The notes under the pieces were generated by a model that made no database searches, was not told the DNA's origin, and saw nothing but the letters and a program-made list of their open reading frames with translations. A stretch of DNA of 12,800 bases from a virus (lineage: Duplodnaviria > Heunggongvirae > Uroviricota > Caudoviricetes). The DNA lies in the IMG/VR virus record IMGVR_UViG_2563366940_000002, positions 1 through 12,800 of that record, one strand, 5' to 3'. Positions 1 through 12,800 of this stretch are shown one piece after another. Position numbers and translations under genes: made by a program. The number at the start of each line of letters is the position of its first letter. Position 1 is the first letter of the stretch.

Positions 1-375
1 GCTGACCCAGCCACGAAACACATCCACCGTGCCATTCGGAAAACGGATTTTATAGGCCCGGACATCGCCGCTTTCAAACCAGCCTATAAGCCCTTTCTGG
101 CCTTGCTCTCCCGGTTTCCAGGCCAGCGTAAAACTGGTATCACCTGCAGATTTCTGCCCCTGCCCGGTCGCGGTCCAGTCCGCGTCTTCATCATCCAGGT
201 AGTTATCATCGTAGGATTCTGCCGTCATCTCGCCCGGCGTCAGATCCTTCACCTTAGCCAGTCGCTGCCAGTCATCGTCTGACAACGGGTTTGCATAAGC
301 ATCACCCTTGCCGTTGTAAACCCACAGAGTGGTACCGGCACCTTTTACCGGCTCAAGGGGATTTGGTGTTGCCAT
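1..375 (-). CDS. V: major tail protein, N-terminal part (gene continues beyond window start)
   Basis: Hand translation from ATG at 375-373 gives [57 protein letters not shown]..., colinear with remembered lambda gpV N-terminus ([33 protein letters not shown]...). Position downstream of U matches lambda order. Confidence 0.85.
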
Positions 376-382
376 ATCGTCC

Positions 383-778
383 TCACATCTCGTATGTAAT
401 GGAATAAGTCAGATCTGCAGAACTCCATAACGCCATATCGTCATCACGACGATACTCATAGCCCTGCGTAACCATCGTGGTAATCAGTCCTGCCAGTGCC
501 GGGATCGCGGTCATCGCCGGGTAAATCCGGCTTTCCATCCACTGATCGAGCTCTGAATCCGGTACCTGTGCCGGTAAAAACACCTCAATATGCAGTGTGG
601 CCCGCCAGGTATCTGCATCCAGCTCTTCACCGGTATACTCTGCATCCGTCAGATAAACCGCGATCGCAGGAAAATCCTCTTCGTCAAAAACAACGGGGCG
701 ACCATCAAACAGCGTCGCCCCGTGTTCATGCTGCTCGAGTGCATCCAGCACTGCGGCACGAATGTCAGTGTGTTTCAT
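383..778 (-). CDS. U: tail tube terminator protein
   Basis: 131 aa, same length as lambda gpU and colinear with it from memory ([14 protein letters not shown]...SSADLTY.ITYEM). ATG at 778-776 overlaps Z stop (ATGA coupling). Confidence 0.9.
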
Positions 779-1308
779 CGTTTTATCGCAATCCTCAGTT
801 GTTGTTTCAGCGCGTATGCCAGTTCTTTAGGCAGGCGTTCACGCCGGATACGGTCAACATTCTCATCAAATGCCTGTTTCAGTGGGGCCGCCATCGGGAT
901 TTTCACCACATCAATGGGGTAACGGTTTTTCCCGGCCACACGCTGCATGACATGCCAGCGACCATTTTTTAATCGCTGAATAAATGCCCGCTGATACCGA
1001 TGCTGACCGGCTTTAAGTATGCTGTTCGGGCGACGCCCCAGCATCCTGATCCCCAGCTTAATCACAGGGAGATCACCGCGGTTAACGATAATTCTGGCAT
1101 TCGGATTTCTGACCGTCGCCCGTTTCAGTCTGGACCGTTCCTTAACCAGTTTCCGGCGAACCTTTGTCTCCCGGGCAACCTGTGATGAAGACTGATTAAT
1201 CGCCGTTGTGGCCACGCGGTTAATGGCCATTGCTGAAGCCGCCGGAATGGCGTTTTTACGAACCCGGCTCAGATTGTCAATCGCCTGATCAAGCCCTTTT
1301 ATCGCCAT
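775..1308 (-). CDS. Z: tail completion / minor tail protein
   Basis: 177 aa; N-terminus MAIKGLDQAIDNLSR and C-terminal ...NGRWHVMQRVAGKNRYPIDVVKIPMA...RIRRERLPKEL... match remembered lambda gpZ; sits between FII and U as in lambda. Confidence 0.9.
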   Translation of the reverse strand: MAIKGLDQAIDNLSRVRKNAIPAASAMAINRVATTAINQSSSQVARETKVRRKLVKERSRLKRATVRNPNARIIVNRGDLPVIKLGIRMLGRRPNSILKAGQHRYQRAFIQRLKNGRWHVMQRVAGKNRYPIDVVKIPMAAPLKQAFDENVDRIRRERLPKELAYALKQQLRIAIKR

Positions 1309-1323
1309 AATTTCACCCTGCGT

Positions 1324-1677
1324 TTATCGTCGCCGGTTAACTGCGGGTGGTTGACCACGGTTGAGCCAGAGATAACAGCTGCCCCCGTCATCCGGAGAAA
1401 CACGATCCACCCAGAATATCTCACCATTAATGGTCAGCGTGTCACCACGCCGCACGGCACGAACCGTATCCGTCCGCACAAATAATGACGGGCTGCTTCC
1501 TTCAATACGGACCCCGCCACCGGCAAACCCCAGCGACTCCGGATCGTCAAAAACCCCCTGAACTTCGCTGCCACACTGTGCCCCCGAGGTGAACTGCGCA
1601 CAGAGCCCCATCACTTCAACGATCGTACTGTCTACCCCGGCGAGGGCAGCATCAAAGGCATTCTGAAAATCACGCAT
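1324..1677 (-). CDS. FII: head-tail joining protein
   Basis: 117 aa, same length as lambda gpFII; strongly colinear, including C-terminal FWVDRVSPDDGGSC.LWL.RG.PPAVNRRR. Confidence 0.9.
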   Translation of the reverse strand: MRDFQNAFDAALAGVDSTIVEVMGLCAQFTSGAQCGSEVQGVFDDPESLGFAGGGVRIEGSSPSLFVRTDTVRAVRRGDTLTINGEIFWVDRVSPDDGGSCYLWLNRGQPPAVNRRR

Positions 1678-2053
1678 ATTCAGCCGTTCCGTGCTGTATC
1701 ATGGCCGTTGCCAGTGATGATGGCACCAGAACACGCATACCCCGTAACGCCAGCTCAACGGGACGACCTGTCTCCGGGCAATACCCCATTACTTGCAGGC
1801 ACTTCCGTACCCGGACGGCTTTAACATCATCCGGAGCATCCGTGTTGTTCAACTGCTCACCATCGTCTGTGTGATTTTGATCAGCCCCGCTCTCATCAGA
1901 GTGCATAATGCCCTCCGGGGAAACAGCAAGCTCCTCTTCCCACTCAGACACACGTTGAGCAATATCCGCAGCACTCCCCGACATATCCGCCTCGCGCCCC
2001 AGCAGGCCAGCCAGTTGACGAAGACGATTCAGATTTTCTTCTTTTGTTGCCAT
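1670..2053 (-). CDS. FI: DNA packaging / head assembly protein FI-like
   Basis: Positional equivalent of lambda FI (between E and FII), acidic central region. Start moved from the ORF-track 2101 to internal ATG at 2053-2051, which has an AGGAGG Shine-Dalgarno 5 nt upstream; the longer ORF would run through the predicted terminator hairpin. Confidence 0.75.
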   Translation of the reverse strand: MATKEENLNRLRQLAGLLGREADMSGSAADIAQRVSEWEEELAVSPEGIMHSDESGADQNHTDDGEQLNNTDAPDDVKAVRVRKCLQVMGYCPETGRPVELALRGMRVLVPSSLATAMIQHGTAEYA

Positions 2054-2067
2054 CTCAGCCTCCTGTG

Positions 2068-2096
2068 AAAAAAGACACGGGGGCATTTCGCCCCCG
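2068..2096 (-). terminator. putative intrinsic terminator between major capsid gene E and FI
   Basis: 7-bp GC stem (2078-2084 pairs with 2090-2096, loop ATTTC) followed on the minus-strand transcript by UGUCUUUUUU (plus-strand A-run 2068-2073). Begins 9 nt after the E stop. Confidence 0.45.
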
Positions 2097-2104
2097 CTCA
2101 CGGA

Positions 2105-3133
2105 TTATTTCACCTGTACCACCACAAACTCATCCGGATCCGGCAGCACCATCAGCGGAGCGGACTGCGTCATGGTGAATTCACAGGACGGATCGCCCAC
2201 GGTCAGCCAGTGTTTCGGGTAACGGGAAGAAGCCACCACTCCTTCAGACAACGCCTGTGCATCCTTAATGGCACCATAGCAACGAATCCCCTCTGCCGCC
2301 GTATTCCCCAGCACCAGCATGCCCTCCGGCAGATAACGTTTTTCGGTACCGTCCTCTGCCACATAAGACGTTTTCGCCACCACAATGGCCAGATCGCCGT
2401 AATACCCCTTGAAGGACACCACTGCGCCCAGATCTTTCACTGCCGTTTCGAGTTGTGAATTTGAGCCGCGACGGGTATCCAGTTTTTCGCGGAACAGCTT
2501 AAAGCCATTCAGCAGACGCCAGACCGTACCGTCCATAATGGCGATATTCACAAGGCCGCTGGCCTGATCGCAGTAGAGGTCAATATCATGCGTCGGATCA
2601 AACGTATCACGGTCCTGCTCAGACCATTTTTTACCGTCAGCCTGCTCAATGTTATTTCCTTCAGAGCGCCCGAAATCCACCTCGACAGTATCAAACTGAT
2701 CCCCTTCCATGGTGTATTTGCCATACAGCACGGCATTCACCGCCTGCATTTCTTCCACCTGGACAATGGCGTGCTCTTCCTGTTTGAGGTTATCGGTAAT
2801 GATACGCAGACGACGGTAGGCCGGGTCGTTCAGCTGAGCCGGATCTTCACCAGGAAGGCGCTCAACCGCCTGCTGGTAATTAAATTCGTGTTTGGGCTTG
2901 ACGTAGCCCGGACGTAACACGCGGGTTTCACCACCGCGATGGCGAAGCACTTTTCCTTCAACGATCGGGGAGACATAGGCCGCCACCGGCGTTTTTCCGG
3001 TAATTTTGTCCAGCATCACCTCTTCGGTGTGGAAATTCACCGTACGGCGGAAAAACAGCTCCAGAAACAGCGCACGGAATTTCACTTTTTGTTCGGTATA
3101 ACCGAGTAACTGGCGGGTCGTAAACAATCCCAT
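2105..3133 (-). CDS. E: major capsid protein
   Basis: 342 aa versus lambda gpE 341 aa; long colinear blocks (SPIV.G.V.R.RGG, PGYVKPKHE, DPAYRR.RII, IAQVEEMQAV.AVL.GKYTM, KLDTRRGSNS.LETAVKDLG, MIQSAPLM.L.DPDEFV.VQ). AAGGAA Shine-Dalgarno upstream of ATG at 3133. Confidence 0.95.
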   Translation of the reverse strand: MGLFTTRQLLGYTEQKVKFRALFLELFFRRTVNFHTEEVMLDKITGKTPVAAYVSPIVEGKVLRHRGGETRVLRPGYVKPKHEFNYQQAVERLPGEDPAQLNDPAYRRLRIITDNLKQEEHAIVQVEEMQAVNAVLYGKYTMEGDQFDTVEVDFGRSEGNNIEQADGKKWSEQDRDTFDPTHDIDLYCDQASGLVNIAIMDGTVWRLLNGFKLFREKLDTRRGSNSQLETAVKDLGAVVSFKGYYGDLAIVVAKTSYVAEDGTEKRYLPEGMLVLGNTAAEGIRCYGAIKDAQALSEGVVASSRYPKHWLTVGDPSCEFTMTQSAPLMVLPDPDEFVVVQVK

Positions 3134-3162
3134 AAATCAGTTCCTTTCATTCAGAAATCAGT

Positions 3163-3182
3163 CAGGCCGCCATGGTGGCCTG
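3163..3182 (-). promoter_or_regulatory. GC-rich near-palindromic hairpin in the D-E intergenic region
   Basis: CAGGCCGCCATGGTGGCCTG is a near-perfect inverted repeat, 8 nt downstream of the D stop and about 30 nt upstream of the E start; no strong U-tract follows on the minus strand. Confidence 0.3.
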
Positions 3183-3190
3183 ATAACGTG

Positions 3191-3538
3191 TTACGGCAGA
3201 GCCGCGTGACTCAGGGCTGTGCCGGCAAAGGCATTTGCCTTTTTGTGTTCATCCACACTGTCAGGCCAGCGGATTGCCTCCGTCGCAAAGGTCCCCGACT
3301 TGTAATAGGTCAGCACCGTCTCTGTGCCTTCAAGCGGCAGTACCAGTATGCCAACCGCACTACCGGCTTTCTGTCCATCCCAGACCACCAGTTTCCCGGT
3401 GGCTTCATCCAGCATCAGGGGCGTCAGAGCCGGTGTTGCAGAAGAAATCCCGCTGCTGCCTGTGGCGGTATGAGCCGGATCATTACCGGCAAAAATACGT
3501 ACTTCCGCACGCTGTTCAGTGATGGTTTTCGTCACCAT
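3191..3538 (-). CDS. D: head decoration protein
   Basis: 115 aa versus lambda gpD 110 aa; motifs DPAHTAT, TPLMLD, KLV.WDG, YKSGTF and FAGTA shared with remembered gpD. Confidence 0.9.
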   Translation of the reverse strand: MVTKTITEQRAEVRIFAGNDPAHTATGSSGISSATPALTPLMLDEATGKLVVWDGQKAGSAVGILVLPLEGTETVLTYYKSGTFATEAIRWPDSVDEHKKANAFAGTALSHAALP

Positions 3539-3574
3539 TTTGTTAAAACCTCATATTGATGGTCAGCACTGACT

Positions 3575-5080
3575 TCATGGCATGGCCATGAGCATTTTCA
3601 CGTCCGCATCACCGTCTGCTGACGTCTGTGACACGCCACCCCGCACCGCTGCCGGTGAATGATTCGCCATGAAATGTTCAAACAAGGCGGTTGTGGATGC
3701 AGAGACCGGTTCGGCCTTACCTGATCCCGCAGCCAGCACAGCCCGGGCGTTCTCCACGGTCATTCCCGGGCAGGCCGCCAGTTTTTCAGCCTGCGCTTCT
3801 GCCCCTTTTGCCTCATCCAGGGCCATGATCTGATCACGAAGTGAGGGCCCGGCATTCGCCTGCGGTGAGGCAGCCAGGATCGGGCGGGCTTTTTCCACCG
3901 TCATCTCCGGCATCGCCGCCAGCGTTGCCGCCAGTTGTTCACGACCTTTCGCTTCTTCACACGCCATAATGCGATCGGCTTCACTCTGCGCGGATGCCAC
4001 CGGCTGCTGTGGTGCCGCCGCGGCCAGAATCGCCCGGGCCTGTTCAATGCTCATGCCCTGTTGTCCTGCCAGCATCGTGGCAAGCTGTTCACGTCCTTTC
4101 GCTTCCTGACACGTCAGGATCCCCATCACTCGCTGGTTCTCCTGCGCGGCAGCTTCCGTTGCAGTTAATTGCGGCATAGTGCCTCCTGTATCATGAGTGT
4201 TCAGCGCCGCAGCCATCACGCTGATGGCATCCGACGCATTGATTAATTCATCCGCCAGTCCGGCCTTAATAGCGGACTGACCTTCAAAAACGGCAGCCTC
4301 TGTCCCCGTGACAGCTTCCACAGACAGCCCCGTATACATCGCCACTTTTTCGGCAAACATCCGGTGCGCCGCATCAACCCGCTGCTGCATGTCCTGACGC
4401 ACCTCTGCCGGTAAGGCTTCAAACTGATTGCCATCCACCTTGTGCGCCCCGGCATAAATCAGCGTGATATCCACCCCGGCCTGCGCCAGATGACCGGCAT
4501 AGCTGACATGGCTCATCATCACGCCAATGGAGCCGATACGGGATGTCTGGGTAACCAGCCGTCGGGAGCAGGCCGACGCCAGCAGCATGGCTGCAGAACA
4601 GGCCGTGTCATTGCACAGTGCCCAGACCGGCTTCTGCTGACGGAGGCGGTAAATCATGTCAGCGCAGTCAAACGCGCCGGCGGCCTGCCCGCCCGGACTG
4701 TCAATGTCCAGCAGTACGCCCCGCACCTGGCTATCTGCCATTGCCTGCTGAAGACAGGCGACAATGCCGTCATAGCCTGTCATTCCGGAAAATGGCCGCA
4801 TACCGCCCAGCCGGTGCACCAGCGTGCCGGTCACCGGCAGTACAGCAATACCGTTCACCACCCGGTAAACACGGGCCGGTCGTTTACCTCCGGCCATGTA
4901 CTCGTCCGTTTCAGCCAGCATTCCGGGAGCATCAAGCTGTACCTGCTGTTGTGGTACCGAAAGACTTGCTGCCCCCATCTCGCGCCCGAGCGCGCAAAAG
5001 AAAACCCGCGCATAGGCGGGCTCCAGAAGCAGCGGTTCATTGAATGCTGCGGCAATAATGTGTGAAAGATTACGTCTCAC
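3575..5080 (-). CDS. C: prohead protease / scaffold protein (S49 ClpP-like peptidase with C-terminal Nu3-like scaffold domain)
   Basis: 501 aa; N-terminal two thirds colinear with lambda gpC (NEPL.LEPAYARVFFCAL, NGIAVLPV.GTLV, PGG.AGAFDCAD.I, KPVWAL.ND..CSA..LLASA.SRRLVTQT.R.GSIGVMM.H). GTG start at 5080-5078 with GAGGAG upstream. C-terminal third holds three tandem repeats (see repeat feature). Confidence 0.9.
   Translation of the reverse strand: MRRNLSHIIAAAFNEPLLLEPAYARVFFCALGREMGAASLSVPQQQVQLDAPGMLAETDEYMAGGKRPARVYRVVNGIAVLPVTGTLVHRLGGMRPFSGMTGYDGIVACLQQAMADSQVRGVLLDIDSPGGQAAGAFDCADMIYRLRQQKPVWALCNDTACSAAMLLASACSRRLVTQTSRIGSIGVMMSHVSYAGHLAQAGVDITLIYAGAHKVDGNQFEALPAEVRQDMQQRVDAAHRMFAEKVAMYTGLSVEAVTGTEAAVFEGQSAIKAGLADELINASDAISVMAAALNTHDTGGTMPQLTATEAAAQENQRVMGILTCQEAKGREQLATMLAGQQGMSIEQARAILAAAAPQQPVASAQSEADRIMACEEAKGREQLAATLAAMPEMTVEKARPILAASPQANAGPSLRDQIMALDEAKGAEAQAEKLAACPGMTVENARAVLAAGSGKAEPVSASTTALFEHFMANHSPAAVRGGVSQTSADGDADVKMLMAMP
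3686..4132 (-). repeat. three in-frame tandem repeats (about 47-53 codons each) in the scaffold domain of gene C
   Basis: Protein level: R[VI]MGILTCQEAKGREQLATMLAGQQGMSIEQARAILAAA / RIMACEEAKGREQLAATLAAMPEMTVEKARPILAAS / QIMALDEAKGAEAQAEKLAACPGMTVENARAVLAAG. DNA level: gttcacgacctttcgcttcttcacacgcc near 3946-3975 recurs as gttcacgtcctttcgcttcctgacacgtc near 4087-4116. Lambda gpC, from memory, has one such unit. Confidence 0.6.
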
Positions 5081-6662
5081 GTGGTGTTGTCTCCTCTTCC
5101 GGCCTGCGACTCTCCGCTATCTGCTGCTGATACGCCTGCGCTATCCACACCGGACGTGAGAGTCCGGCTTTTTCCCGCTCTGCAGATTCCCTGACCTGCT
5201 GGCGGAAAATGTCCTGATAATCCTCGCCCATCAGCGCCAGCTCTTTCTCATACGTGCTCAGTCCGGCCTCAATGCGCATCACTGATTCCTGAACCTCCTT
5301 GAGCCCGTCAATGGCCATTCTTCCGGCTCCAATCCACTCAGCCCGTGACCAGGCTGATCGCGCCTGATAAAAATCAAAACGTGCCCGTGGCGGACGAATA
5401 ATCCCCCGAAGAAGTGCCTCTTCCAGCCAGCAGGAAAACATCTGCGTGGCCAGCCGGGACGCAATAAATTTTCGCCGCCCCATAAAATAGCGCCACGACT
5501 CATTGGCGGATGCGCGGGCACTTGAATAACTGACCTTCGAGTAATCACGGGACAACTGTTCGTAGGAAACGCCAAGACCGGCGGCGATATACCGCAGCAG
5601 CGCCTGTTCAAGCGCCGAAAATCCATTGTCTGAATCCTGCGCGGTCTGAAGTTTCAGATCATCACCGGGGAAAAGGTGCGGAATTTTGACACCGCCCAGC
5701 GTCACGCTATTCGTGTCATACCAGGTGGAGAACTTCTCCAGAATATTAATAAGCGGATTATCCTTCTGCTCCTGTGGCGCGCCGGCGATATATTCAAAGG
5801 CCTTTTCGGTATCAAGTTCACTTTCAATCGTCGCTGCATACATCGCCTTCACTATGGCCGACTGAAGCTGTGTTGCCTGCAGGGAATCGAGCATCTTCAG
5901 CCGTTCCATGACGCTGTAAAACTGATTGGCCCCACGGGTCTGCCCGTCCTCCACCGGCTCGAAAATATGCAGCATGGCCGGACGCCCGGTGGGAAGTTCA
6001 CGCGGGATCCGTTCCCATCGTCCACTACCAGAGAACGGAAAATCATCCTCACAGATATGGTACGCAACGGCACGACCATATCGATCGACCTCCACACCGG
6101 CCCGCAGAAAACGGTTCCCCATACCGTGTCCTGGCGTGTCCACCCGTTTCGGACTCACGGCTTTAAAACGCGTACGGAATAACTGCGTGGTTTCCGTATC
6201 CCAGACCGGCTGCACAAAGATTTCGCCGTTAAACGCATGAACGCCCACACCTTCACGGATAAATTCCGTAAACGTGCGTTTCCCTTCCACGTCGATCTCG
6301 CCAAACATCCCTTCGGCGTATTCCGACCAGGCCGCCTCCACCTCATCGACAAAACTTTTTGCCGCAGTCTCCCGCATCCCCAGCCAGCGCCAGTTCGGAC
6401 GGTAGCTGATCAGAAACATATGCCCGACAATATGATCCTTATGCAGGGCCACCGCATTAGCCGCTATCCCGTTATTGCGCACCAGATCATCTGCCCGGGC
6501 ATTCCCCAGACGCAACGCAGGCAGCAGGGCTGCATCGGCACTCTGCGCTGGTGGCAACCACTCCGCCATTTGCCCGCCAAATCCTGCACCGCCACCGTTG
6601 TAGCTGAGGCTCTCCCGAAGCGGAACGCCGTTCACATCAATCAGGACAGGCGTTCGTTTCAT
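5070..6662 (-). CDS. B: portal protein
   Basis: 530 aa versus lambda gpB 533 aa; extensive colinear identity (GNARADDLVRNNG.AANA..LH.DHIVG, FEPVEDGQTRGAN.FYSVME..KMLD.LQ.TQLQSAIVKAMYAATIESELDT, LLRYIAAGLGVSYEQLSR.Y...SYS.ARASANESW.YFMGRRKF.ASR, GRMAIDGLKEVQE.VM.IEAGLSTYEKE). Overlaps W and C as in lambda. Confidence 0.95.
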   Translation of the reverse strand: MKRTPVLIDVNGVPLRESLSYNGGGAGFGGQMAEWLPPAQSADAALLPALRLGNARADDLVRNNGIAANAVALHKDHIVGHMFLISYRPNWRWLGMRETAAKSFVDEVEAAWSEYAEGMFGEIDVEGKRTFTEFIREGVGVHAFNGEIFVQPVWDTETTQLFRTRFKAVSPKRVDTPGHGMGNRFLRAGVEVDRYGRAVAYHICEDDFPFSGSGRWERIPRELPTGRPAMLHIFEPVEDGQTRGANQFYSVMERLKMLDSLQATQLQSAIVKAMYAATIESELDTEKAFEYIAGAPQEQKDNPLINILEKFSTWYDTNSVTLGGVKIPHLFPGDDLKLQTAQDSDNGFSALEQALLRYIAAGLGVSYEQLSRDYSKVSYSSARASANESWRYFMGRRKFIASRLATQMFSCWLEEALLRGIIRPPRARFDFYQARSAWSRAEWIGAGRMAIDGLKEVQESVMRIEAGLSTYEKELALMGEDYQDIFRQQVRESAEREKAGLSRPVWIAQAYQQQIAESRRPEEETTPRET

Positions 6663-6865
6663 AACCTCACTCCCAGCGGACGACGGCGACGGCGGGTTGT
6701 CCCCAGTACCGACTCCGCATCATTGATCGCCCGGTTAAGCTCATCCAGAGAAGCTGCCGTATATTCAATTCTGCGACCATCTTTCTGGACAGACACCACC
6801 CGTTTACCGGTTAATAAATCAAGGCGCGCCTGACGCAGCGCCTGCAGTTCAGCGACTGTAACCAT
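6659..6865 (-). CDS. W: head-tail connector / head completion protein W
   Basis: 68 aa, same length as lambda gpW; DLLTGKRVV.VQKDGRR.E.TA.S matches from memory. ATG at 6865 with GGAGGAG Shine-Dalgarno; start overlaps A stop, stop overlaps B start. Confidence 0.9.
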   Translation of the reverse strand: MVTVAELQALRQARLDLLTGKRVVSVQKDGRRIEYTAASLDELNRAINDAESVLGTTRRRRRPLGVRL

Positions 6866-8777
6866 TCACTCCTCCGGACAGCTTCGCTGCCAGTTCTTTA
6901 AGGGTTGGCCGGGTCGTCTCTTCTTCCCGGGATTTTGCCAGTACAGCCAGATCAAGCTGCCAGCGTTGCACGGACACACGTAATGCCGCGTAGGCATACA
7001 CCAGGCAGTCCAGCGCTTCGTTACGCCGCTTTTTGTTATCCCACAGCAGACGCATCTTTCCTTTTTCCCACTTCTCCACAAGCTCTTCCGCCACCAGTTG
7101 CTGCGCCTCTGTCTGCGAAAAAATCTCCGGATCATCAGGAAAACGGATGGCATACGACGTGGCTTCATCCGCAGGCGTGGGATCGGCTTTCATACGGGCA
7201 TAGAGAATTTCTTTTGCGGTGTCCGTCCCCACTTCACACAGATACACGCCCCGCTGATTGCGGGTTTTCGGCATGGTGATCACCGGCTTGCCATAGACAG
7301 ATGCGCCTTTTACCGGCAGCACCCGGAAAACACCGTGTTTTTTTGACCTCTGATAGACAATTTCACCATCGATCCCCCCGGTGTCCCAGCAGACACGGGA
7401 AATGGTCATTTCGGTTCCGTCTGCATGGCAGTATTTTTTGTTGATCGCCGCATCCACACGTAACAGCGTCTCTTCCTCATCGGGACGGCCCATAATGATG
7501 ATTTTATCCACCAGAAAAGCTTCCTCTCCCGGTGCCCATCCCCAGACATACATCTCAAAACGGTTTCGCTGCGAGTCAATGCCCGCCGTCAGATAAACCA
7601 CCCGGGCTGGCACCGCCGCCGTGTAATGCACGACCTTATCCATCAGTACCTGGTGATCGAGTTTTTCGCCCACGGCCTCTTCCCAGGTCTCGCCCAGCGT
7701 GGTGTTCACAAAGGTTTTCAGGCCGTTGGGATCTTTCAGTGCATCCAGCCAGTCATAGACTATCTGTACCCAGGTGGTGAACGGACTGTACGCCGTCCAG
7801 ATATGGAACGTGATGGAGCGCGGCGGCGGAATTTCATTATCCGCGGCGCTGAAAAACGTCAGACCGTCACGGGTCCACATCCCCGTGTTTTCACAGATCC
7901 ACCGCCCGTTGCTCTGGTCAAGCTCAGACTGATGGATCACGCAGCCATGATGTTCACAGAGGTAGAAAACGCTTTCGGGGCTGTCCTTCTCCCATTTAAG
8001 GCCAAAAGGCGTGGATTCATCGCCAAATTTCAGATACTGCTCCTCCCCACAGTGTGGGCAGGGCACATAAAAACGCATGAAATGCGCCGACTCGTTGGCC
8101 GCTTTTTCGATCTGGCAGGTGCCTTTGATTTTAGGCGTCGAGCCGCGAATGGATTTGGGCCATACAGAGCCCTCAATACGTTTATCCCCAAGCAGGGTTG
8201 GCGACCCCTCTTTTTCGACATCCGGTTCGAACGAGGAAAGTTCGTCATAGCAGACCACGTCCACGGATTTTTCACGGTAGTTTTTAGCGGCAGCCCCGCC
8301 CAGGCACCAGAAGCCCACGCCCGATGAAAAACGTTTCAGCGTGAGGGTATTATCACGATGTTTACGCCCAAACCACGGTGCAAGATCGAGTAAAACCGGC
8401 ACATCCCTGATCGTGGGTTCCACATGAGATTTCATAAAATCTTCAGCAGCAGAATCCGTGGGCTGGAAAAGAAGGCTGTTGCGTGATTTATGCTCAATAA
8501 AATAAGCCTCCACTCCCAGCAACATCTTTGTATAACCAACACGGGCAGATTTAATCAGATTAACAGTGCGGATCCGGTCATTCCCCATGCTGTTCATGAT
8601 GGCAACCTGAAACGGCAGTGTTTCCCACCGCCCCGGGGTGTAAGATGACTCTTTCGGAAGGTAATAATGTCGATCTGCCCACTGAACTGTCGTCAGAGGG
8701 ACAGGAATTTTTAGCGCAAGGAGGCCGGTTGCTATCGCTCCTGCAGAATTAGCCGCCCTCAGTTCGTCTGAAATCAT
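6849..8777 (-). CDS. A: terminase large subunit
   Basis: Colinear with remembered lambda gpA across the whole length ([141 protein letters not shown]). Start placed at the third in-frame ATG (8777-8775, AGGTGGA Shine-Dalgarno 5 nt upstream), giving 642 aa versus 641 in lambda; the ORF-track start at 8819 has no ribosome-binding site. Confidence 0.95.
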
Positions 8778-9297
8778 CAATCCACCTGCGCACATTCTCA
8801 CCGGCTTCAGAAGCCACATCGGATGCTTTCGCGATTTCAGTTTTCACAGCATCAAGATGTACGGGTGATATATCAGGGTATTTACGCTGCAGTGTCTGAG
8901 GGACACGGACAAGGATCCCTGATATATTCTGTGCCACTCGCTGAAAGATGTAGGTAAATAACTCCGTCTCGAGGACAAGGCCTTCCTCACGAGCATTTTT
9001 CAGCTCCTGTGCATCGGCCTGTGCCTTCGTCAGTCGGTAACGTTCGTAATCAATGGTGCAGGGCTGAAGGTCTGATTCGCTGGCAGCCCTCAAATCCTCG
9101 ATCTCTTTACGGAGTTTTTCGTTTTCAATATCAGCTTCCCTCTGCGCATACCACTGAATGGCAGCAGTTGTATCAAAAACTGATTCAGTCCCTTTCCCTC
9201 CACCAGAAACTAGTGGTAACCCCTGACTCTGCCAGGCGGTGATGGTCCTGACATCAACGCCAAAAATATCGGCCAGTTTTTTCTTATTGACGTTCAT
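8749..9297 (-). CDS. Nu1: terminase small subunit
   Basis: 182 aa versus lambda Nu1 181 aa; N-terminal helix-turn-helix [27 protein letters not shown]...GGGKG and [40 protein letters not shown] match remembered Nu1. Immediately adjacent to cosB. Confidence 0.95.
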
Positions 9298-9510
9298 ACA
9301 CTCCCCCGGGAACCAGAAAGGATCTGAAAATGGCGTTTTCTAACAAAAACAGCCTTTGTCAGATCCTTTTATATTTTTAAAATTCTATTGATAATCAATC
9401 AGTTAAAAAGAAGAACGGATCTGATTTTTCCCTAAAAATTTTCATAAATAGCGAAAACCCGCGAGGTCGCCGCCCCGTAACCGGTCGGATCGCCGGAAAG
9501 GACCCACGAA
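9298..9510. other. lambda-type cohesive end site cos (cosB - cosN - cosQ side)
   Basis: 9450-9475 (AGCGAAAACCCGCGAGGTCGCCGCCC) is the exact reverse complement of the remembered lambda left-end sequence GGGCGGCGACCTCGCGGGTTTTCGCT; the 12-nt cohesive end GGGCGGCGACCT maps to 9464-9475 on the minus strand. Flanking sequence on the lysis side (reverse complement GGCGATCCGACCGGTTACG) resembles the lambda right end; the AT-rich stretch 9300-9450 towards Nu1 resembles cosB. Confidence 0.85.
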
Positions 9511-9587
9511 ATGATAATTATTATCATCTATATAAGGTTTATCACAACATGTGTGTACGCCATCAAACCACGAGAAATAATCAATTA

Positions 9588-9620
9588 TGACGCAGGTATC
9601 GTATTAATTGATCTGCGTCA
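9588..9620. promoter_or_regulatory. 8-bp perfect inverted repeat TGACGCAG-N17-CTGCGTCA upstream of the ylcI-like gene
   Basis: Read directly: tgacgcag at 9588-9595 and ctgcgtca at 9613-9620, AT-rich 17-nt spacer, about 60 bp upstream of the 9682 start codon; a GATAAT -10-like hexamer lies between. Candidate operator or binding site; function not established. Confidence 0.3.
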
Positions 9621-9681
9621 AATTAACGTAAAAGCAACTTCAGATAATACAAATCAGCAACACTGAATATGGGGAAACATT

Positions 9682-9867
9682 ATGTCATCAAAGAACAGAA
9701 CCCGCAGAACAACAACCCGCAACATCCGATTTCCAAACCAGATGATTGAACAAATTAACATCGCTCTTGATCTGAAAGGTTCAGGAAACTTTTCAGCGTG
9801 GGTTATTGAAGCCTGCAGAAGAAGGCTGTCAACAGAGAGTTCGGGTATGAATTACATAATTAAGTAA
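9682..9867 (+). CDS. ylcI: YlcI-like small protein (DUF3950 family), function unknown
   Basis: 61 aa beginning MSSKNRTRRTTTRNIRFPNQMIEQINIAL..GSGNFSAWVIEACRRRL, which I recognise from memory as the YlcI/DUF3950 family found next to nohD (Nu1 homologue) in the E. coli DLP12 prophage. ATG at 9682 preceded by GGGGAAA; opposite strand to all structural genes. Confidence 0.7.
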   Translation: MSSKNRTRRTTTRNIRFPNQMIEQINIALDLKGSGNFSAWVIEACRRRLSTESSGMNYIIK

Positions 9868-9999
9868 CATGGTGTTCACAGAACACGCAGTTACCGGACA
9901 CATCAGTTTTCCATTCGCTCCCTGGCAGTACAGGCTTCCCCTCTGACGGGATAGCCTGAAAAAATAACACAGAAAATTATTTGTTATAATTAATATAAC

Positions 10000-10140
10000 T
10001 TACTCAAAAAAAAGCGACGAGAAAATCAGCATCAACGAACAATAAGCGCCAATACGTGATAACAAATGGCAGCCATATTTATCTGCAGTATAAGCAATGG
10101 ACAGGATAACCACTCCAGAAACCGTCAGCATAAAATCCAT
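10000..10140 (-). CDS. hypothetical 46-aa hydrophobic peptide (uncertain)
   Basis: Hand translation MDFMLTVSGVVILSIAYTADKYGCHLLSRIGAYCSLMLIFSSLFFE; ATG at 10140 with GGGGAAG about 7 nt upstream; two short hydrophobic segments. Lies in a T-rich (minus strand) stretch, where hydrophobic ORFs arise by chance, so it may be spurious. Confidence 0.2.
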   Translation of the reverse strand: MDFMLTVSGVVILSIAYTADKYGCHLLSRIGAYCSLMLIFSSLFFE

Positions 10141-10490
10141 TTGAACTTCCCCGGACAAAATCGACTCATCTAAAGATTTACAGCTCTTTTTATTATCAAT
10201 ATGTTAAAAGTAAAATAAACAGATGTTCAATAACACGAATACAAAAACGTGCTGAAATTCAATGAATCCATTTCTGTGTCATCAATTAATAGTGATAAAC
10301 ATCCGGCTTCTTCCACCATCGCACCGGACAGGCGACTATGAGGGGACAACGCCGCGCTCCGTTAACGCGGTAAACCCCGGTGTGTGTCGTTTTTGATTAT
10401 CCCCGCACACTCGCGCAGAGGAGTCTCCCTGTCGGGCTGCGGTCTCTGTTAATGCGGGGATACGGCGACAATACCGCGCATCAGCAAAAC

Positions 10491-10964
10491 CTATTTCAGG
10501 CACTGAGTGCGGATATAGTCCTGCGCCCCTTCCAGCTGCTTCTGCATCAGCATCAACCGTTCTCTGAGAGTGAAATAATCCCGTTCAGCGGTGTCTGCCA
10601 GTTGGGGGCCGGTTGCATTATCCACGCGGGCGGTGCCGGTGGCTTCACGCACGGGACCTGGACAGGTGGCGTTGATACGCAGGCGCTTACGACCAGCGGC
10701 AACGTCAGCGCGAAGAGTTTCATTTTCAGCTCTCGCATCGGCTAATTCCCTCGAGTATTTTGCATCGAGCGCAGCAACATCGCGCTGGCGCACCTGCATA
10801 TCAGTAATGGTTGCGTTCGCCAGCTTCAGTTCACTGGCTTTGTTATCGCGCTGCGCTTTGTAGGTAATCGCGTTATCACGGTAATGGTCTGTTGCCATCC
10901 ACAGCGCTCCACAGGCCACCAGCAGAATAACGATAAACGCGGAAAGCATTCGGTTTATGTTCAC
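10491..10964 (-). CDS. Rz: i-spanin (inner-membrane spanin subunit)
   Basis: 157 aa versus lambda Rz 153 aa; N-terminal transmembrane segment then [14 protein letters not shown]....[45 protein letters not shown]...REAT...[33 protein letters not shown], strongly colinear with lambda Rz. GTG start at 10964-10962 overlaps the upstream gene stop (GTGA). Confidence 0.9.
10553..10738 (-). CDS. Rz1: o-spanin (outer-membrane lipoprotein spanin subunit), embedded in +1 frame of Rz
   Basis: 61 aa; lipobox LPLVVSAC then proline-rich [27 protein letters not shown], matching remembered lambda Rz1 (LPLVVVGC...[27 protein letters not shown]). Entirely inside Rz in another frame, as in lambda. Confidence 0.85.
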
Positions 10965-11092
10965 CCCAGCAGCCCCGACGAAGACAACATCATCCAGGCC
11001 ATGGAAAGAAAAAGAGCAACCAGCATTAGTGAAAATGAAATGCCGACAATTACACAGAGGATCTTCGCCAGCGTTATGAGTTTGTCTGACAT
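10961..11092 (-). CDS. hypothetical 43-aa hydrophobic membrane peptide
   Basis: [43 protein letters not shown]; ATG at 11092-11090 preceded by AAGGGAGGA with ideal spacing; stop overlaps Rz GTG start; upstream gene stop TGA overlaps this Shine-Dalgarno. About 34 consecutive hydrophobic residues. The ORF-track version (73 aa from 11182) is trimmed to this internal start. Confidence 0.5.
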
Positions 11093-11106
11093 GCTTAATC
11101 CTCCCT

Positions 11107-11289
11107 TCACGATTTCAACGCAATGACCAGTTTTGCCAGCCCATACAGCATCGGGGACACAGCAACACCGACCGCCACCCACTTAATGGCAAAAGCCAGT
11201 GCTCTGCTGATGTCATCAGTTACAGGCGCTTTCAGTTCAAGGCCGTTTTTCATAGTCAACCTCAACAGAATTCGTTTATACTTTTCCAT
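11107..11289 (-). CDS. hypothetical 60-aa tail-anchored membrane protein
   Basis: [60 protein letters not shown]; ATG at 11289-11287 preceded by AAGGGAGAA; basic N-terminal region and one C-terminal transmembrane segment. Trimmed from the ORF-track start at 11322, which has no ribosome-binding site. Confidence 0.5.
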
Positions 11290-11322
11290 GTTCTCCCTTG
11301 CCTTATCCAAGGTCAGAAACAC

Positions 11323-11355
11323 AAAACCCCGCTTGCAGCCAACAAACGGGGTTTT
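11323..11355. terminator. putative bidirectional intrinsic terminator between endolysin and the small membrane-protein genes
   Basis: 13-bp stem with one mismatch (aaaaccccgcttg at 11323-11335 pairs with caaacggggtttt at 11343-11355), 7-nt loop, A-tract / T-tract arms, and T-rich flanks on both strands (plus: ttacttttatt; minus: gtgtttctg). Confidence 0.5.
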
Positions 11356-11445
11356 TACTTTTATTCACTTAGGTTTTGCCAGTTCTCAGGATTTCGTGTT
11401 ATCCGTCCGCATTAGCCAACGTCATTTTTCAACAAAATATTCTGC

Positions 11446-11979
11446 TTATTTGTCAATTCCCCAGCACGCCAGCGCGCTCTCCTGGTCACGCCGTGAGACC
11501 TGTCCATAGCAGTTATTTGAACGAATACGGCAGTCTCTGCCACCGTCCTTAATCCACCAGCGAATCGCCTCACATGCTCCCCTGCGATCGCCAGCATTAA
11601 TTCGTCTGTAAAACGTCGACGGGAAACACTTACCGGGACCAATGTTGTACGGACAGAATGACGCGATCCCCGCTTTCTGGGGTTCGGTCAATGGCACTTT
11701 GATGTTTTTCTCCACCCATGCCAGCGCCTTATCACGCTCAATGGCGTTAACCCGGTCGCATTTTTCCTTCGACAACTTCATGCCCGGAACGACAGGTTTG
11801 CCATCCACCAGGATGGCACCGCGGCAGATGGTCCAGATACCCGCGCCATCACGGTATGCCGTGGTGTGGTTACCTTCCTTTTCATCCAGAAACTGGTCGA
11901 GAATGTCAGGCGCAGGCGCACCAGCGGCAATCAGCGCCAGAACGGCAGCCGACAGGCCGTATCTGATTTTTGCGTTCAT
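11446..11979 (-). CDS. R: endolysin, T4-type lysozyme fold (GH24) with probable N-terminal SAR (signal-anchor-release) domain
   Basis: 177 aa; catalytic spacing E-x8-D-x5-T in FLDEKEGNHTTAYRDGAGIWT as in T4 lysozyme and P21-type R; Gly/Ala-rich weakly hydrophobic N-terminus (GLSAAVLALIAAGAPAP) typical of SAR endolysins; overall resemblance to remembered P21/DLP12 RrrD-type lysozymes. ATG at 11979. Confidence 0.9.
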   Translation of the reverse strand: MNAKIRYGLSAAVLALIAAGAPAPDILDQFLDEKEGNHTTAYRDGAGIWTICRGAILVDGKPVVPGMKLSKEKCDRVNAIERDKALAWVEKNIKVPLTEPQKAGIASFCPYNIGPGKCFPSTFYRRINAGDRRGACEAIRWWIKDGGRDCRIRSNNCYGQVSRRDQESALACWGIDK

Positions 11980-12084
11980 GGATATTTATCAGGATTTATC
12001 GGTTTCTGAGCCCTGGATATGTTTATCAGTTCCAGCCTGTTGCCTCAGGCTGCTAACAGGTCAATACAATCATGAGGATTATTT

Positions 12085-12357
12085 ATGGACAATAACACCA
12101 TTTCTCTACAGGAGTTGCTCGACAGCATTTCCAGGCTTCGGGAAGACGTGAATACCCTTACCGTCGCCTTCTCATATCTGGCATTCTCAATTCCAAGGGA
12201 ACAGATGCAATCAACGCTGGCATCAATCCAGTTTGAATCATGCAATCCCAAATGGTCTCAGGAACAACAAGACTCTTTCAGGCGGCTTGCTGTATTACTG
12301 GATGAAAAATATGCTGGTAAAATTACCATTTCGGCGGACTCTTCAGAGAACCCGTAA
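12085..12357 (+). CDS. hypothetical protein, 90 aa, no recognised family
   Basis: ATG at 12085 preceded by GAGGA at about 7 nt; possible sigma70-like TTGCCT ... TACAAT upstream (12040-12070, spacing slightly long). No transmembrane segment, N-terminal region looks helical. Overlaps the 3' end of the convergent 114-aa ORF by 35 nt, so one of the two may be spurious. Confidence 0.4.
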   Translation: MDNNTISLQELLDSISRLREDVNTLTVAFSYLAFSIPREQMQSTLASIQFESCNPKWSQEQQDSFRRLAVLLDEKYAGKITISADSSENP

Positions 12358-12667
12358 TTATTCCCGGTAGTTTTCCTCTGTAGGTTATCAACACATCCTG
12401 CGCCTCTAAAATTACGGGGCGCTTTTCCGGCGACTGCTCATCCCCTTCACATAACCCGGCAGCAACATCCAGGAAGACCTGTCTGATGCTCCTTCTGGCT
12501 GCTGCCTCATAAAACTCCAGCGCGGCACCTTCAACACGGTCCAGCGAGATGTCCAGGTCAAAAATTTCACCGTCAAAGCGTTTTTTGTCCCGTAACGCTA
12601 AAGTTACCGTAACTTTATTCTCAAAATTGCGGATCCCTTTCACAATCAGTTTATAGTTTTGAGTCAT
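12323..12667 (-). CDS. hypothetical protein, 114 aa, no recognised family
   Basis: MTQNYKLIVKGIRNFENKVTVTLALRDKKRFDGEIFDLDISLDRVEGAALEFYEAAARRSIRQ...; ATG at 12667-12665 preceded by GGGGAGAG. Same strand as the lysis genes; no transmembrane segment, so not a holin. The ORF-track 5' extension to 12799 is read-through of the IS end and is discarded. Confidence 0.5.
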   Translation of the reverse strand: MTQNYKLIVKGIRNFENKVTVTLALRDKKRFDGEIFDLDISLDRVEGAALEFYEAAARRSIRQVFLDVAAGLCEGDEQSPEKRPVILEAQDVLITYRGKLPGIITGSLKSPPKW

Positions 12668-12706
12668 TGAATTACTCTCCCCGTGCAGCCTTACGACGGT
12701 CCTCTC

Positions 12707-12800
12707 TGAACCGCCCCGGGAATCCTGGAGACTAAACTTCCTGAGAAAGAGGTAAACAGGATGACTAAAAATACTCGTTTTTCCCCCGAAGTCCGTCAAC
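12707..12800 (+). mobile_element. left end of an IS3-family insertion sequence (IS629 / IS1203-like), truncated by window edge
   Basis: 12707 onward reads TGAACCGCCCCGGGAATCCTGGAGACTAAACTTCCTGAGAAAGAGGTAAACAGG ATG ACT AAA AAT ACT CGT TTT TCC CCC GAA GTC CGT CAA, which I recognise from memory as the IS629-type left inverted repeat plus the start of orfA (MTKNTRFSPEVRQ). Confidence 0.85.
12761..12800 (+). CDS. IS3-family transposase OrfA, first 13 codons only
   Basis: ATG at 12761 preceded by AGAGG; translation MTKNTRFSPEVRQ matches the remembered N-terminus of IS629/IS1203 OrfA; truncated by window end. Confidence 0.8.
   Translation, partial: MTKNTRFSPEVRQ

Follow-up and report, generated by a model that had tools for sequence, protein, structure and literature searches.

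The stretch of DNA analysed here (the window; 12,800 nucleotides, positions 1 to 12,800 of the IMG/VR virus record IMGVR_UViG_2563366940_000002) contains the late region of a lambda-like prophage on its minus strand. Two very short open reading frames (ORFs), ORF1 and ORF2, follow a terminator-like hairpin in the lysis region, and the cassette formed by these three elements has the endolysin gene R as its upstream and the spanin gene Rz as its downstream neighbor (Table 1). The N-terminus of R contains a hydrophobic segment of the signal-anchor-release (SAR) type (MNAKIRYGLSAAVLALIAAGAPAP...). Both ORF1 and ORF2 are genuine genes. An earlier reading of the bare sequence (the original prediction) had described a 60-aa tail-anchored and a 43-aa hydrophobic ORF between a SAR endolysin and Rz, each with a near-consensus Shine-Dalgarno (SD) sequence and both parted from the endolysin gene by a strong hairpin. 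All of these elements were found: the ORFs are conserved membrane-peptide genes on the minus strand, both SD sequences can be read directly, and the hairpin has 14 pairs. The additional statement that the genes are chained stop-to-start held for the junction of ORF2 and Rz, where the ORF2 TGA overlaps the Rz GTG at position 10964 (GTGA), and did not hold for ORF1 and ORF2, which are 14 nt apart, with the SD of ORF2 spanning the stop of ORF1. The overlap hinges on the choice of the Rz start, as an alternative ATG lies 15 nt further downstream. The GTG is favored because it yields a basic MNINR N-terminus and is called by the Prokaryotic Genome Annotation Pipeline (PGAP).

Table 1 Features of the cassette and its surroundings (window positions)
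Feature	Coordinates	Strand	Basis
ORF1, 60-aa tail-anchored microprotein	11107..11289 (ATG 11289, stop 11107)	minus	phrog_1115 E 1e-42, function unknown
SD of ORF1, AAGGGAGAA	11291..11299	minus	read from sequence
ORF2, 43-aa single-pass membrane microprotein	10961..11092 (ATG 11092, stop 10961)	minus	phrog_4906 E 2e-23, function unknown
SD of ORF2, AAGGGAGGA	11099..11107	minus	read from sequence; first base of the SD is the last base of the ORF1 TGA
Rho-independent terminator-like hairpin (14-bp stem, 5-nt loop) and U-tract	11313..11355 (hairpin proper 11355..11323)	minus	structure scan
R, lysozyme, 177 aa	11979..11446	minus	PF00959 E 3e-24; phrog_7 endolysin; relatives label "lysozyme R"
Rz, i-spanin	10491..10964	minus	PF03245 E 5e-50; phrog_13; PGAP "lysis protein" extends to GTG start
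Rz1, o-spanin lipoprotein, lipobox VVSAC, within Rz, +1 frame	10553..10738	minus	ORF list; annotated Rz1 in Stx2a_1447
Lysis genes	10491-11979	minus	
Head genes (terminase, portal, protease/scaffold, major capsid)	1-9297	minus	ORF list

The ratios of non-synonymous to synonymous polymorphism (pN/pS) were determined from the distinct alleles found in phage records, in genomes of E. coli and Salmonella, and in contigs of IMG/VR. In both ORFs, the variable sites were in excess at third codon positions. The ORF1 core had 12, 3, and 26 variable sites at the first, second, and third position, respectively, with a pooled pN/pS of 0.14 and a dN/dS of 0.03-0.09 for the most divergent pairs; the corresponding values for ORF2 were 21, 18, and 28 sites, 0.45, and 0.12-0.26. 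PGAP annotates both ORFs as hypothetical proteins. Of 5,426 complete E. coli genomes, 990 matched the 461-nt query with at least 80% coverage, and 2,116 matched it in part. A homologue of ORF2, XECs191 (MMGWLMISDKLITLVKSLCVLVGISF...) of E. coli O157:H7 Sakai, has been reported to be transcribed and translated (Hücker et al. 2017, PMC5597208). In LB medium, this ORF had a transcriptome RPKM (reads per kilobase per million mapped reads) of 30.0 and a translatome RPKM of 12.6 in ribosome profiling (RIBOseq), with a ribosome coverage value (RCV) of 0.43 and a coverage of 0.55; it was predicted to reside in the inner membrane, was classified as "real" by the authors' classifier, and is one of 465 listed ORFs, whose genomic context, family, and function in the case of XECs191 were not discussed (PMC5597208). 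XECs191 sits in the order ant-ORF2-Rz, unlike the order ORF1-ORF2-Rz of the window. The concern of the original prediction that the ORFs might be spurious is countered by these pN/pS values and by the RIBOseq signal of the ORF2 homologue.

A gene on the plus strand, antisense across the region, was also considered and was rejected. The long plus-strand ORF is regarded as a by-product because the third-position variation follows the minus-strand frames and the SD sequences are on the minus strand. We hold with high confidence that the cassette consists of a hairpin and two genuine genes for single-helix membrane microproteins, and that it is a self-contained, shuffled module.

Two predicted single-helix membrane proteins

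ORF1 has a basic N-terminal segment of ~30 aa with 8 K/R before the hydrophobic window, followed by a moderately hydrophobic C-terminal helix that ends in ...ALKS (Kyte-Doolittle window 1.88, positive charge on the N-side). AlphaFold2 (AF2) placed helices at residues 2-15 and 22-59, and the basic N-terminus is predicted to be cytoplasmic with the C-terminal helix in the inner membrane. Conservation is centered on the transmembrane (TM) core, where A30, A34, G41, S45, G50, and A52 are invariant. ORF2 is one very hydrophobic helix (Kyte-Doolittle window 2.89) with K4 and K10 on the N-side, where the positive charge lies, and an uncharged tail ending in ...SSSGLLG; its predicted topology is N-in/C-out, and AF2 returned a single helix at residues 2-38 with a predicted local distance difference test (pLDDT) score of 88. 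Its conserved mid-helix motif is VIVGISFS, with G17, S19, and S21 invariant. In both peptides, the small and polar residues appear to form stripes of the kind expected for helix-helix contact surfaces. The helix of ORF1 aligned with the second TM domain (TMD2) of the pinholin over 16 columns with 50% identity and a shared W..G...S spacing (hhalign, P 0.014), and also resembled the SAR anchor of R (shuffle p 0.03), neither value being significant when corrected for 10 comparisons.

Matches to both ORFs were obtained in PHROG (1115/4493/3246 for ORF1 and 4906 for ORF2), all of them of unknown function, in agreement with the original prediction, which had recognized neither sequence. Sequence searches of Pfam, NCBIfam, PADLOC, Rfam, and PDB yielded no match for either ORF (Pfam and PADLOC at E ≤ 1), and none was found to holin, antiholin, releasin, spanin, defence, or toxin families. 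The ORF1-family profile, searched against 1.84 billion representatives, hit only 17 clusters, all unnamed, which extended the range of the family to Klebsiella aerogenes and Yersinia and provided no remote link to any known family. Thus, the profile searches and structure predictions that the original prediction had called for gave helices for both peptides and no known family. Its alternative, that the pair would turn out to be common annotated holin/antiholin genes, is at odds with the label "hypothetical protein" carried by all database homologues of both ORFs. In the literature searched, we found no functional study of these peptides or of similar small proteins from lysis cassettes.

Several variants of the two genes were observed. 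An 8-codon leader ORF is opened by the first SD and ATG in Salmonella and E. coli A1, and its TGA overlaps the GTG of the ORF1 homologue (loci L084, 2968-3003, and L094); relative to this version, the window has a deletion of ~30 nt that fuses the leader SD and ATG straight to ORF1 (MEKYKR replacing MRKYKR). On a 554-nt metagenomic scaffold (L221, 43-222), the N-terminal half of a pinholin is joined in frame to the C-terminal helix of ORF1 at a shared AGTGGG. This chimera, a lead from a single scaffold, either arose by deletion at a microhomology as a prophage decayed or is an artefact of assembly. ORF2 alleles appeared as frame-shifted (split) tblastn matches at L029, L032, L035, L036, and four more IMG/VR loci, and the called proteins P0090, P0092, P0094, and P0114 fuse the N-terminal part of ORF2 to the ORF1 core, with the change of frame at the T-run GCTCTTTTTCT. 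Such alleles represent genuine pseudogenes and fusions or else sequencing errors in a homopolymer. The in-frame ORF2::ORF1-core fusions (P0090 etc.) were considered as Rosetta-stone evidence for an interaction and set aside, as they depend on a one-base difference in the T-run and may be frameshift errors.

The hairpin and expression of the module

The hairpin is the sole terminator-like site on the minus strand between positions 10400 and 12400. It is directly followed by TTTTGTGTTT; the R stop (11446) is followed by a 156-nt spacer that ends in the hairpin and its U-tract, and only ~33 nt lie between the hairpin and the ATG of ORF1. In a hand-picked alignment of four sequence-distinct versions, the stem was kept in all of them, with 93% of cells paired and one pair seen as U-G, G-C, and A-U. 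The Rfam search with the hairpin gave no match. The hairpin also forms the left boundary of a mobile module, as homology to a cassette with a GH108 endolysin (see below) starts exactly at its A-tract. The GC content of the module is 47.8% compared with 55.1% in R and Rz, although TM-coding sequence is intrinsically T-rich.

A consensus scan of the gene strand detected no promoter-like site, and the terminator is located upstream, not downstream, of the mini-genes. Because of this arrangement and the coupling junctions, the cassette is probably transcribed only when a Q-modified RNA polymerase reads through the hairpin. The mini-genes would then most likely be expressed from no transcript other than the Q-antiterminated late one of lytic growth, and ORF1, ORF2, and Rz are probably translated in a chain. 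The low signal in uninduced Sakai cultures could reflect spontaneous induction and is also compatible with lysogenic expression.

A YnfO/YlcI-like gene (DUF3950, phrog_949) on the plus strand at 9682-9867 is oriented towards Rz, and its transcription would be antisense to Rz and the mini-genes. The hairpin at 11323-11355 is two-faced, and terminating transcription from this plus-strand gene is a candidate role for it.

Mosaic distribution of the mini-genes

The sample for a survey of the region upstream of Rz consisted of 120 IMG/VR stretches matching a conserved Rz motif, 91 of which contained an Rz homologue and sufficient upstream sequence. The upstream large ORF abuts Rz in 55 of these 91 contigs, with phage-21-type and lambda-type endolysins among those inspected. 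This is consistent with the statement of the original prediction that lambda and P21 have no gene at this position. A gap of 121-700 nt was present in 28 of the 91, and at least one hydrophobic mini-ORF was found in 24 of these 28. Overall, the mini-gene pool occupies the endolysin-spanin gap in roughly a third of the sampled Rz-carrying viral contigs. The gap was enriched beside endolysins at least 70% identical to R of the window (21/30 versus 6/48; Fisher 3e-7, for contigs that are not phylogenetically independent). E. coli K-12 cannot serve as a model, as its Qin prophage has no genes between rrrQ and rzpQ.

ORF2 was detected beside Rz by tblastn in 276 phage records, mostly of Shiga toxin (Stx) phages with the order R - ant - ORF2 - Rz, and is unannotated in many of them. 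ORF1 was found in only 14 phage records. Salmonella contains ORF1 without ORF2 between a SAR lysozyme and Rz, and relatives of ORF1 also occur in Klebsiella and Yersinia. In E. coli EC42405, a GH108 endolysin of the cytoplasmic type, accompanied by two holins, precedes an identical hairpin-ORF1-ORF2 module, whose downstream neighbor is a small lipoprotein and not Rz. An ORF1 variant with a different C-terminal helix (...AFAIRIVAIAVLVWAIRWW) lies after an M15 endolysin or directly 5' of Rz. In Yersinia enterocolitica, the AFAIRIVAIAVLVWAIRWW-type variant (49 aa) and Rz persist in a prophage remnant beside host genes with IS110 downstream (L222-L224, 2501-3101); within the examined flanks of 2.5 kb, neither a holin nor an endolysin gene was called, and the ORF1-type gene with Rz is present in more than 1,000 contigs from many assemblies. 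Further relatives of ORF1 were located after tail-fibre genes, preceded by terminators, and some at prophage ends. The GGGGTGA junction of ORF2 is reused with a different downstream gene in one relative. The question raised with the original prediction, whether the pair always accompanies this endolysin type, is therefore answered in the negative, as ORF2 occurs with ant, ORF1 occurs alone, and the GH108, M15, and tail-fibre contexts show that the link to the endolysin type of the window is not obligatory.

Longer arrays were also detected. Between R and Rz, phage vB_EcoS-569R3 has four consecutive mini-ORFs, in which ORF2 precedes a 38-aa ORF1 core, and strain E1624 has four or five. Such R-Rz arrays comprise 4-5 translationally chained tiny hydrophobic ORFs with repeated AFAI(K/R) cores and a swapped order (L090, 2400-2970; L095, 1720-2450), which suggests that they evolved by unequal recombination. 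The mini-genes of the GH108 and M15 lysis cassettes are followed by a lipoprotein of 60 aa with the lipobox LVGC (phrog_7528, function unknown; L093, 1778-1960; L091, 2149-2331), and no Rz/Rz1 was recognizable in these cassettes.

As judged from these sequences, ORF1 and ORF2 are not an obligate pair; each belongs independently of the other to a pool of recombining, tail-anchored mini-genes (PHROGs 1115/4493/3246, 4906, and 6632). The cassette is a self-contained, horizontally shuffled, low-GC mosaic module within the late lysis operon. It is a genuine and common feature that falls outside the known lysis-protein families and is not dedicated to the SAR endolysin.

The nearest records to the window are E. 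coli lambdoid phages and prophages, with PhiR12 phages 96% identical over the lysis region and Stx phages ~90%. In these relatives, holin S (71 aa, class II) comes first, followed by a DUF1327 gene, a small gene on the plus strand, R, two ORFs labeled "hypothetical proteins", and Rz. The window has a truncated DUF1327 (YdfR-like) gene upstream of R (12323-12800), cut at ~12700 by an IS3-family insertion sequence, whose inverted-repeat end and orfA start (MTKNTRFSPEVRQ) match records annotated as IS629. Since this IS629-like element cuts the DUF1327 gene, the holin that relatives carry just beyond it lies outside the window. Between DUF1327 and R, a 90-aa gene on the plus strand (12085-12357; phrog_2411, function unknown; "DUF1823" in PhiR12_1) is conserved in position in relatives. 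Downstream of Rz, the minus strand contains another small hydrophobic ORF (10000-10158, 46 aa from its ATG, MDFMLTVSGVVILSIAYTADKYGCHLLSRIGAYCSLMLIFSSLFFE) with GGGGAAG upstream and no PHROG match.

Possible roles and comparison with known systems

Our best guess, to which we assign a probability of about 0.35, is that ORF1 and ORF2 encode accessory, non-essential microproteins that tune lysis through helix-helix contacts. Since the conserved parts of both peptides are TM helices with invariant small and polar residues, we infer that they bind other helices in the inner membrane. Acting there, the peptides might influence when the pinholin triggers, whether the weakly hydrophobic SAR anchor is retained or released, or how ready the spanin is. 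The recurrence of the module and its relatives after GH24 SAR, GH108, and M15 endolysins, often directly 5' of Rz and chained into it, argues for a role in lysis. Possible precedents are the small membrane proteins that phage P1 has with its SAR endolysin and the accessory protein of phage Mu that controls SAR release.

It is unlikely that ORF1 and ORF2 are themselves a holin, an endolysin, or a spanin. Both are small proteins with at least one TM domain, as holins are. The canonical holin among the roles considered was rejected because neither ORF matches a holin or "lysis" family in Pfam, NCBIfam, or PHROG and both lack a charged C-terminal domain (net charge of the C-terminal flank +1 in ORF1 and 0 in ORF2). 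Neither peptide would be the only hole former of the cassette, since relatives have the 71-aa class II holin S upstream and others have a PF16080 holin or two holins. An antiholin tied to one holin family does not agree with the presence of the module alongside an S21-type holin, a PF16080 holin, and a two-holin GH108 cassette. A releasin in the sense of the DUF2730 family (Mu gp25), which the original prediction had brought up in looser form, was discarded for want of a DUF2730 match and for the opposite topology and different size of the peptides; ORF1 and ORF2 are the first and second genes after R, in keeping with the position of that releasin a few genes downstream of its endolysin. A spanin or lipoprotein was rejected in view of the missing periplasmic domain, lipobox, and PF03245 match, and of the canonical Rz/Rz1 that directly follows.

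Several observations weigh against the assignment to lysis tuning. The slot that holds the mini-genes contains the antirepressor gene ant in Stx phages; as it accepts ant, it is a hotspot for insertions in general, which makes guilt by association a weak argument. Relatives of ORF1 follow tail-fibre genes far from any lysis genes, and because the module occurs with unrelated holins and endolysins, no one specific lysis protein can be its partner. Most lambdoid phages, K-12 Qin included, do without these genes and lyse normally. The TM similarities to S and R lost significance on correction, and the translation signal from uninduced Sakai cultures could mean lysogenic rather than exclusively late expression. 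The indifference to holin and endolysin type together with the mosaic nature of the family also fits accessory conflict genes such as exclusion factors.

Such genes are the subject of the reading that we rank second and consider possible but doubtful. It holds that the microproteins are moron-like cargo that would bind a host inner-membrane protein (a sugar phosphotransferase system or other DNA-entry channel, a protease, or an insertase) and thereby cause superinfection exclusion, counter-defence, or host remodeling, the lysis site being a mere hotspot. Small membrane proteins are well established as regulators of larger transporters, SgrT-PtsG being one example. The insertion of the module between genes that abut in many relatives and its base composition, which differs from that of the flanks by the GC values given above, are both expected of morons, and the location of ORF1 relatives at tail-fibre or prophage ends corresponds to classic moron sites. 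Swapped order, duplicated cores, and exchangeable N-termini make the family a hypervariable mosaic of the type seen in conflict genes, and the acceptance of ant in the same slot and the independence of holin and endolysin type point in the same direction. The expression data are two-sided: the ORF2 homologue is translated in uninduced Sakai, but the signal is low and could stem from spontaneously induced cells, and with a terminator upstream and no promoter-like site, expression in a lysogen would be unexpected. The tight translational chaining into Rz and the lack of a PADLOC match at E ≤ 1 for anti-phage defence or exclusion also speak against cargo of this kind.

Two further readings, which we judge equally improbable and rank below both of the above, attribute either more damage or less function to the peptides. 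One or both could damage the membrane, either as a small toxin that depolarizes it or as a one-helix, non-canonical holin or pinholin helper, and so add to its late collapse. The peptides are indeed short and very hydrophobic, have strong ribosome-binding sites, and stand behind a terminator that would silence a toxic product in lysogens, and the G-xxx-S pattern of the ORF1 helix resembles pinholin TMD2. However, the family searches, the absent charged C-terminal domain, and the canonical holin already present in relatives disagree with a holin-like activity, and the ORF1b-Rz pair kept in the more than 1,000 Y. enterocolitica contigs argues against strong toxicity. Type I toxins (Hok, Ldr, TisB etc.) were rejected on the basis of no Pfam or Rfam match and the location of the genes within an operon with strong SD sequences and no antisense-RNA or antitoxin arrangement; the membrane toxin module offered by the original prediction is unlikely for genes that are promoter-less inside a late operon. 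Conversely, the peptides could be nearly functionless recombination scars, or translational relays that keep ribosomes flowing into Rz once insertions had parted it from R. ORF2 always abuts the next gene through a reusable GGGGTGA or TGAtATG junction, it is under weaker constraint than ORF1 and has frameshifted or fused alleles, and the arrays resemble products of unequal recombination. A relay does not need a conserved peptide sequence, whereas the ORF1 core is under strong purifying selection in the pooled and pairwise comparisons and is conserved from Escherichia to Yersinia, and ORF2 has retained its hydrophobic length and the invariant motif in the middle of its helix across 65-100% identity.

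Lysis tuning remains the reading that we favor. Lysis by phages of Gram-negative bacteria, with holin, endolysin, and spanin, is thought to be well understood, and accessory players such as the Mu releasin and P1 LydC/LydD still emerge. The mini-genes described here are very common, with parts of the module in ~2,100 of the 5,426 E. coli genomes in addition to the 276 phage records for ORF2. In its widest form, our proposal is that enterobacterial lambdoid phages, most Stx phages among them, harbor between endolysin and spanin a recombining pool of lysis regulators, so far unrecognized as a class, that consist of little but a TM helix. By mimicking or binding the helix of the pinholin pore or the anchor of either the SAR endolysin or the spanin, these would set the time of membrane collapse. 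We regard this generalization as rather unlikely; if it were true, the timing and amount of Shiga toxin and phage release would be affected. If what the peptides block is instead the entry of DNA or a membrane protein of the host, they would be additions to the catalogue of microprotein regulators and exclusion factors. As the gene families are already in databases as unknowns and one homologue has been reported to be translated, the novelty lies in the recognition of the mosaic family and its context.

Among known systems, classical morons are expressed in the lysogen from a promoter of their own and have a terminator downstream; lambda bor/lom, HK97 gp15, and P22 SieA are lambdoid morons or membrane exclusion proteins. 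The module resembles them as a set of extra genes between conserved late genes at lysis-cassette or tail-fibre ends, with deviant composition and patchy distribution. It differs in that its terminator is upstream, the scan detected no gene-strand promoter, and no sequence similarity to bor/lom, gp15, or SieA exists, yet the Sakai homologue gave a low RIBOseq signal in uninduced cells. Mu gp25 releasin (DUF2730) has 99 aa, an N-out/C-in topology, and a 73-aa acidic cytoplasmic domain, and controls the release of a SAR endolysin. As a small accessory protein, it shares with ORF1 and ORF2 the tether to the membrane and a gene position no more than a few genes after a SAR endolysin, whereas ORF1 and ORF2 have the opposite topology, almost no soluble domain, and no DUF2730, and their phages possess a holin. 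The cognate holin of close relatives is of the phage 21 pinholin S type (class II), in which the antiholin is the form with 71 aa. The pore helix TMD2 of this pinholin aligns with the ORF1 helix at the non-significant corrected level stated above, and it is at this point that the metagenomic scaffold L221 joins the two genes, but ORF1 lacks TMD1 and the cytoplasmic tail and also occurs with unrelated holins. In phage P1, LydC and LydD, predicted holins or pinholins with reported mutant lysis phenotypes, are present alongside LydA/LydB and the SAR endolysin Lyz. ORF1 and ORF2 differ from them in having one helix each, no holin-typical charged C-terminal tail, and no holin family match. The likeness lies in the presence of several small membrane proteins beyond the minimal set together with a SAR endolysin, and those of P1 are individually dispensable and have been proposed to adapt lysis to host or conditions.

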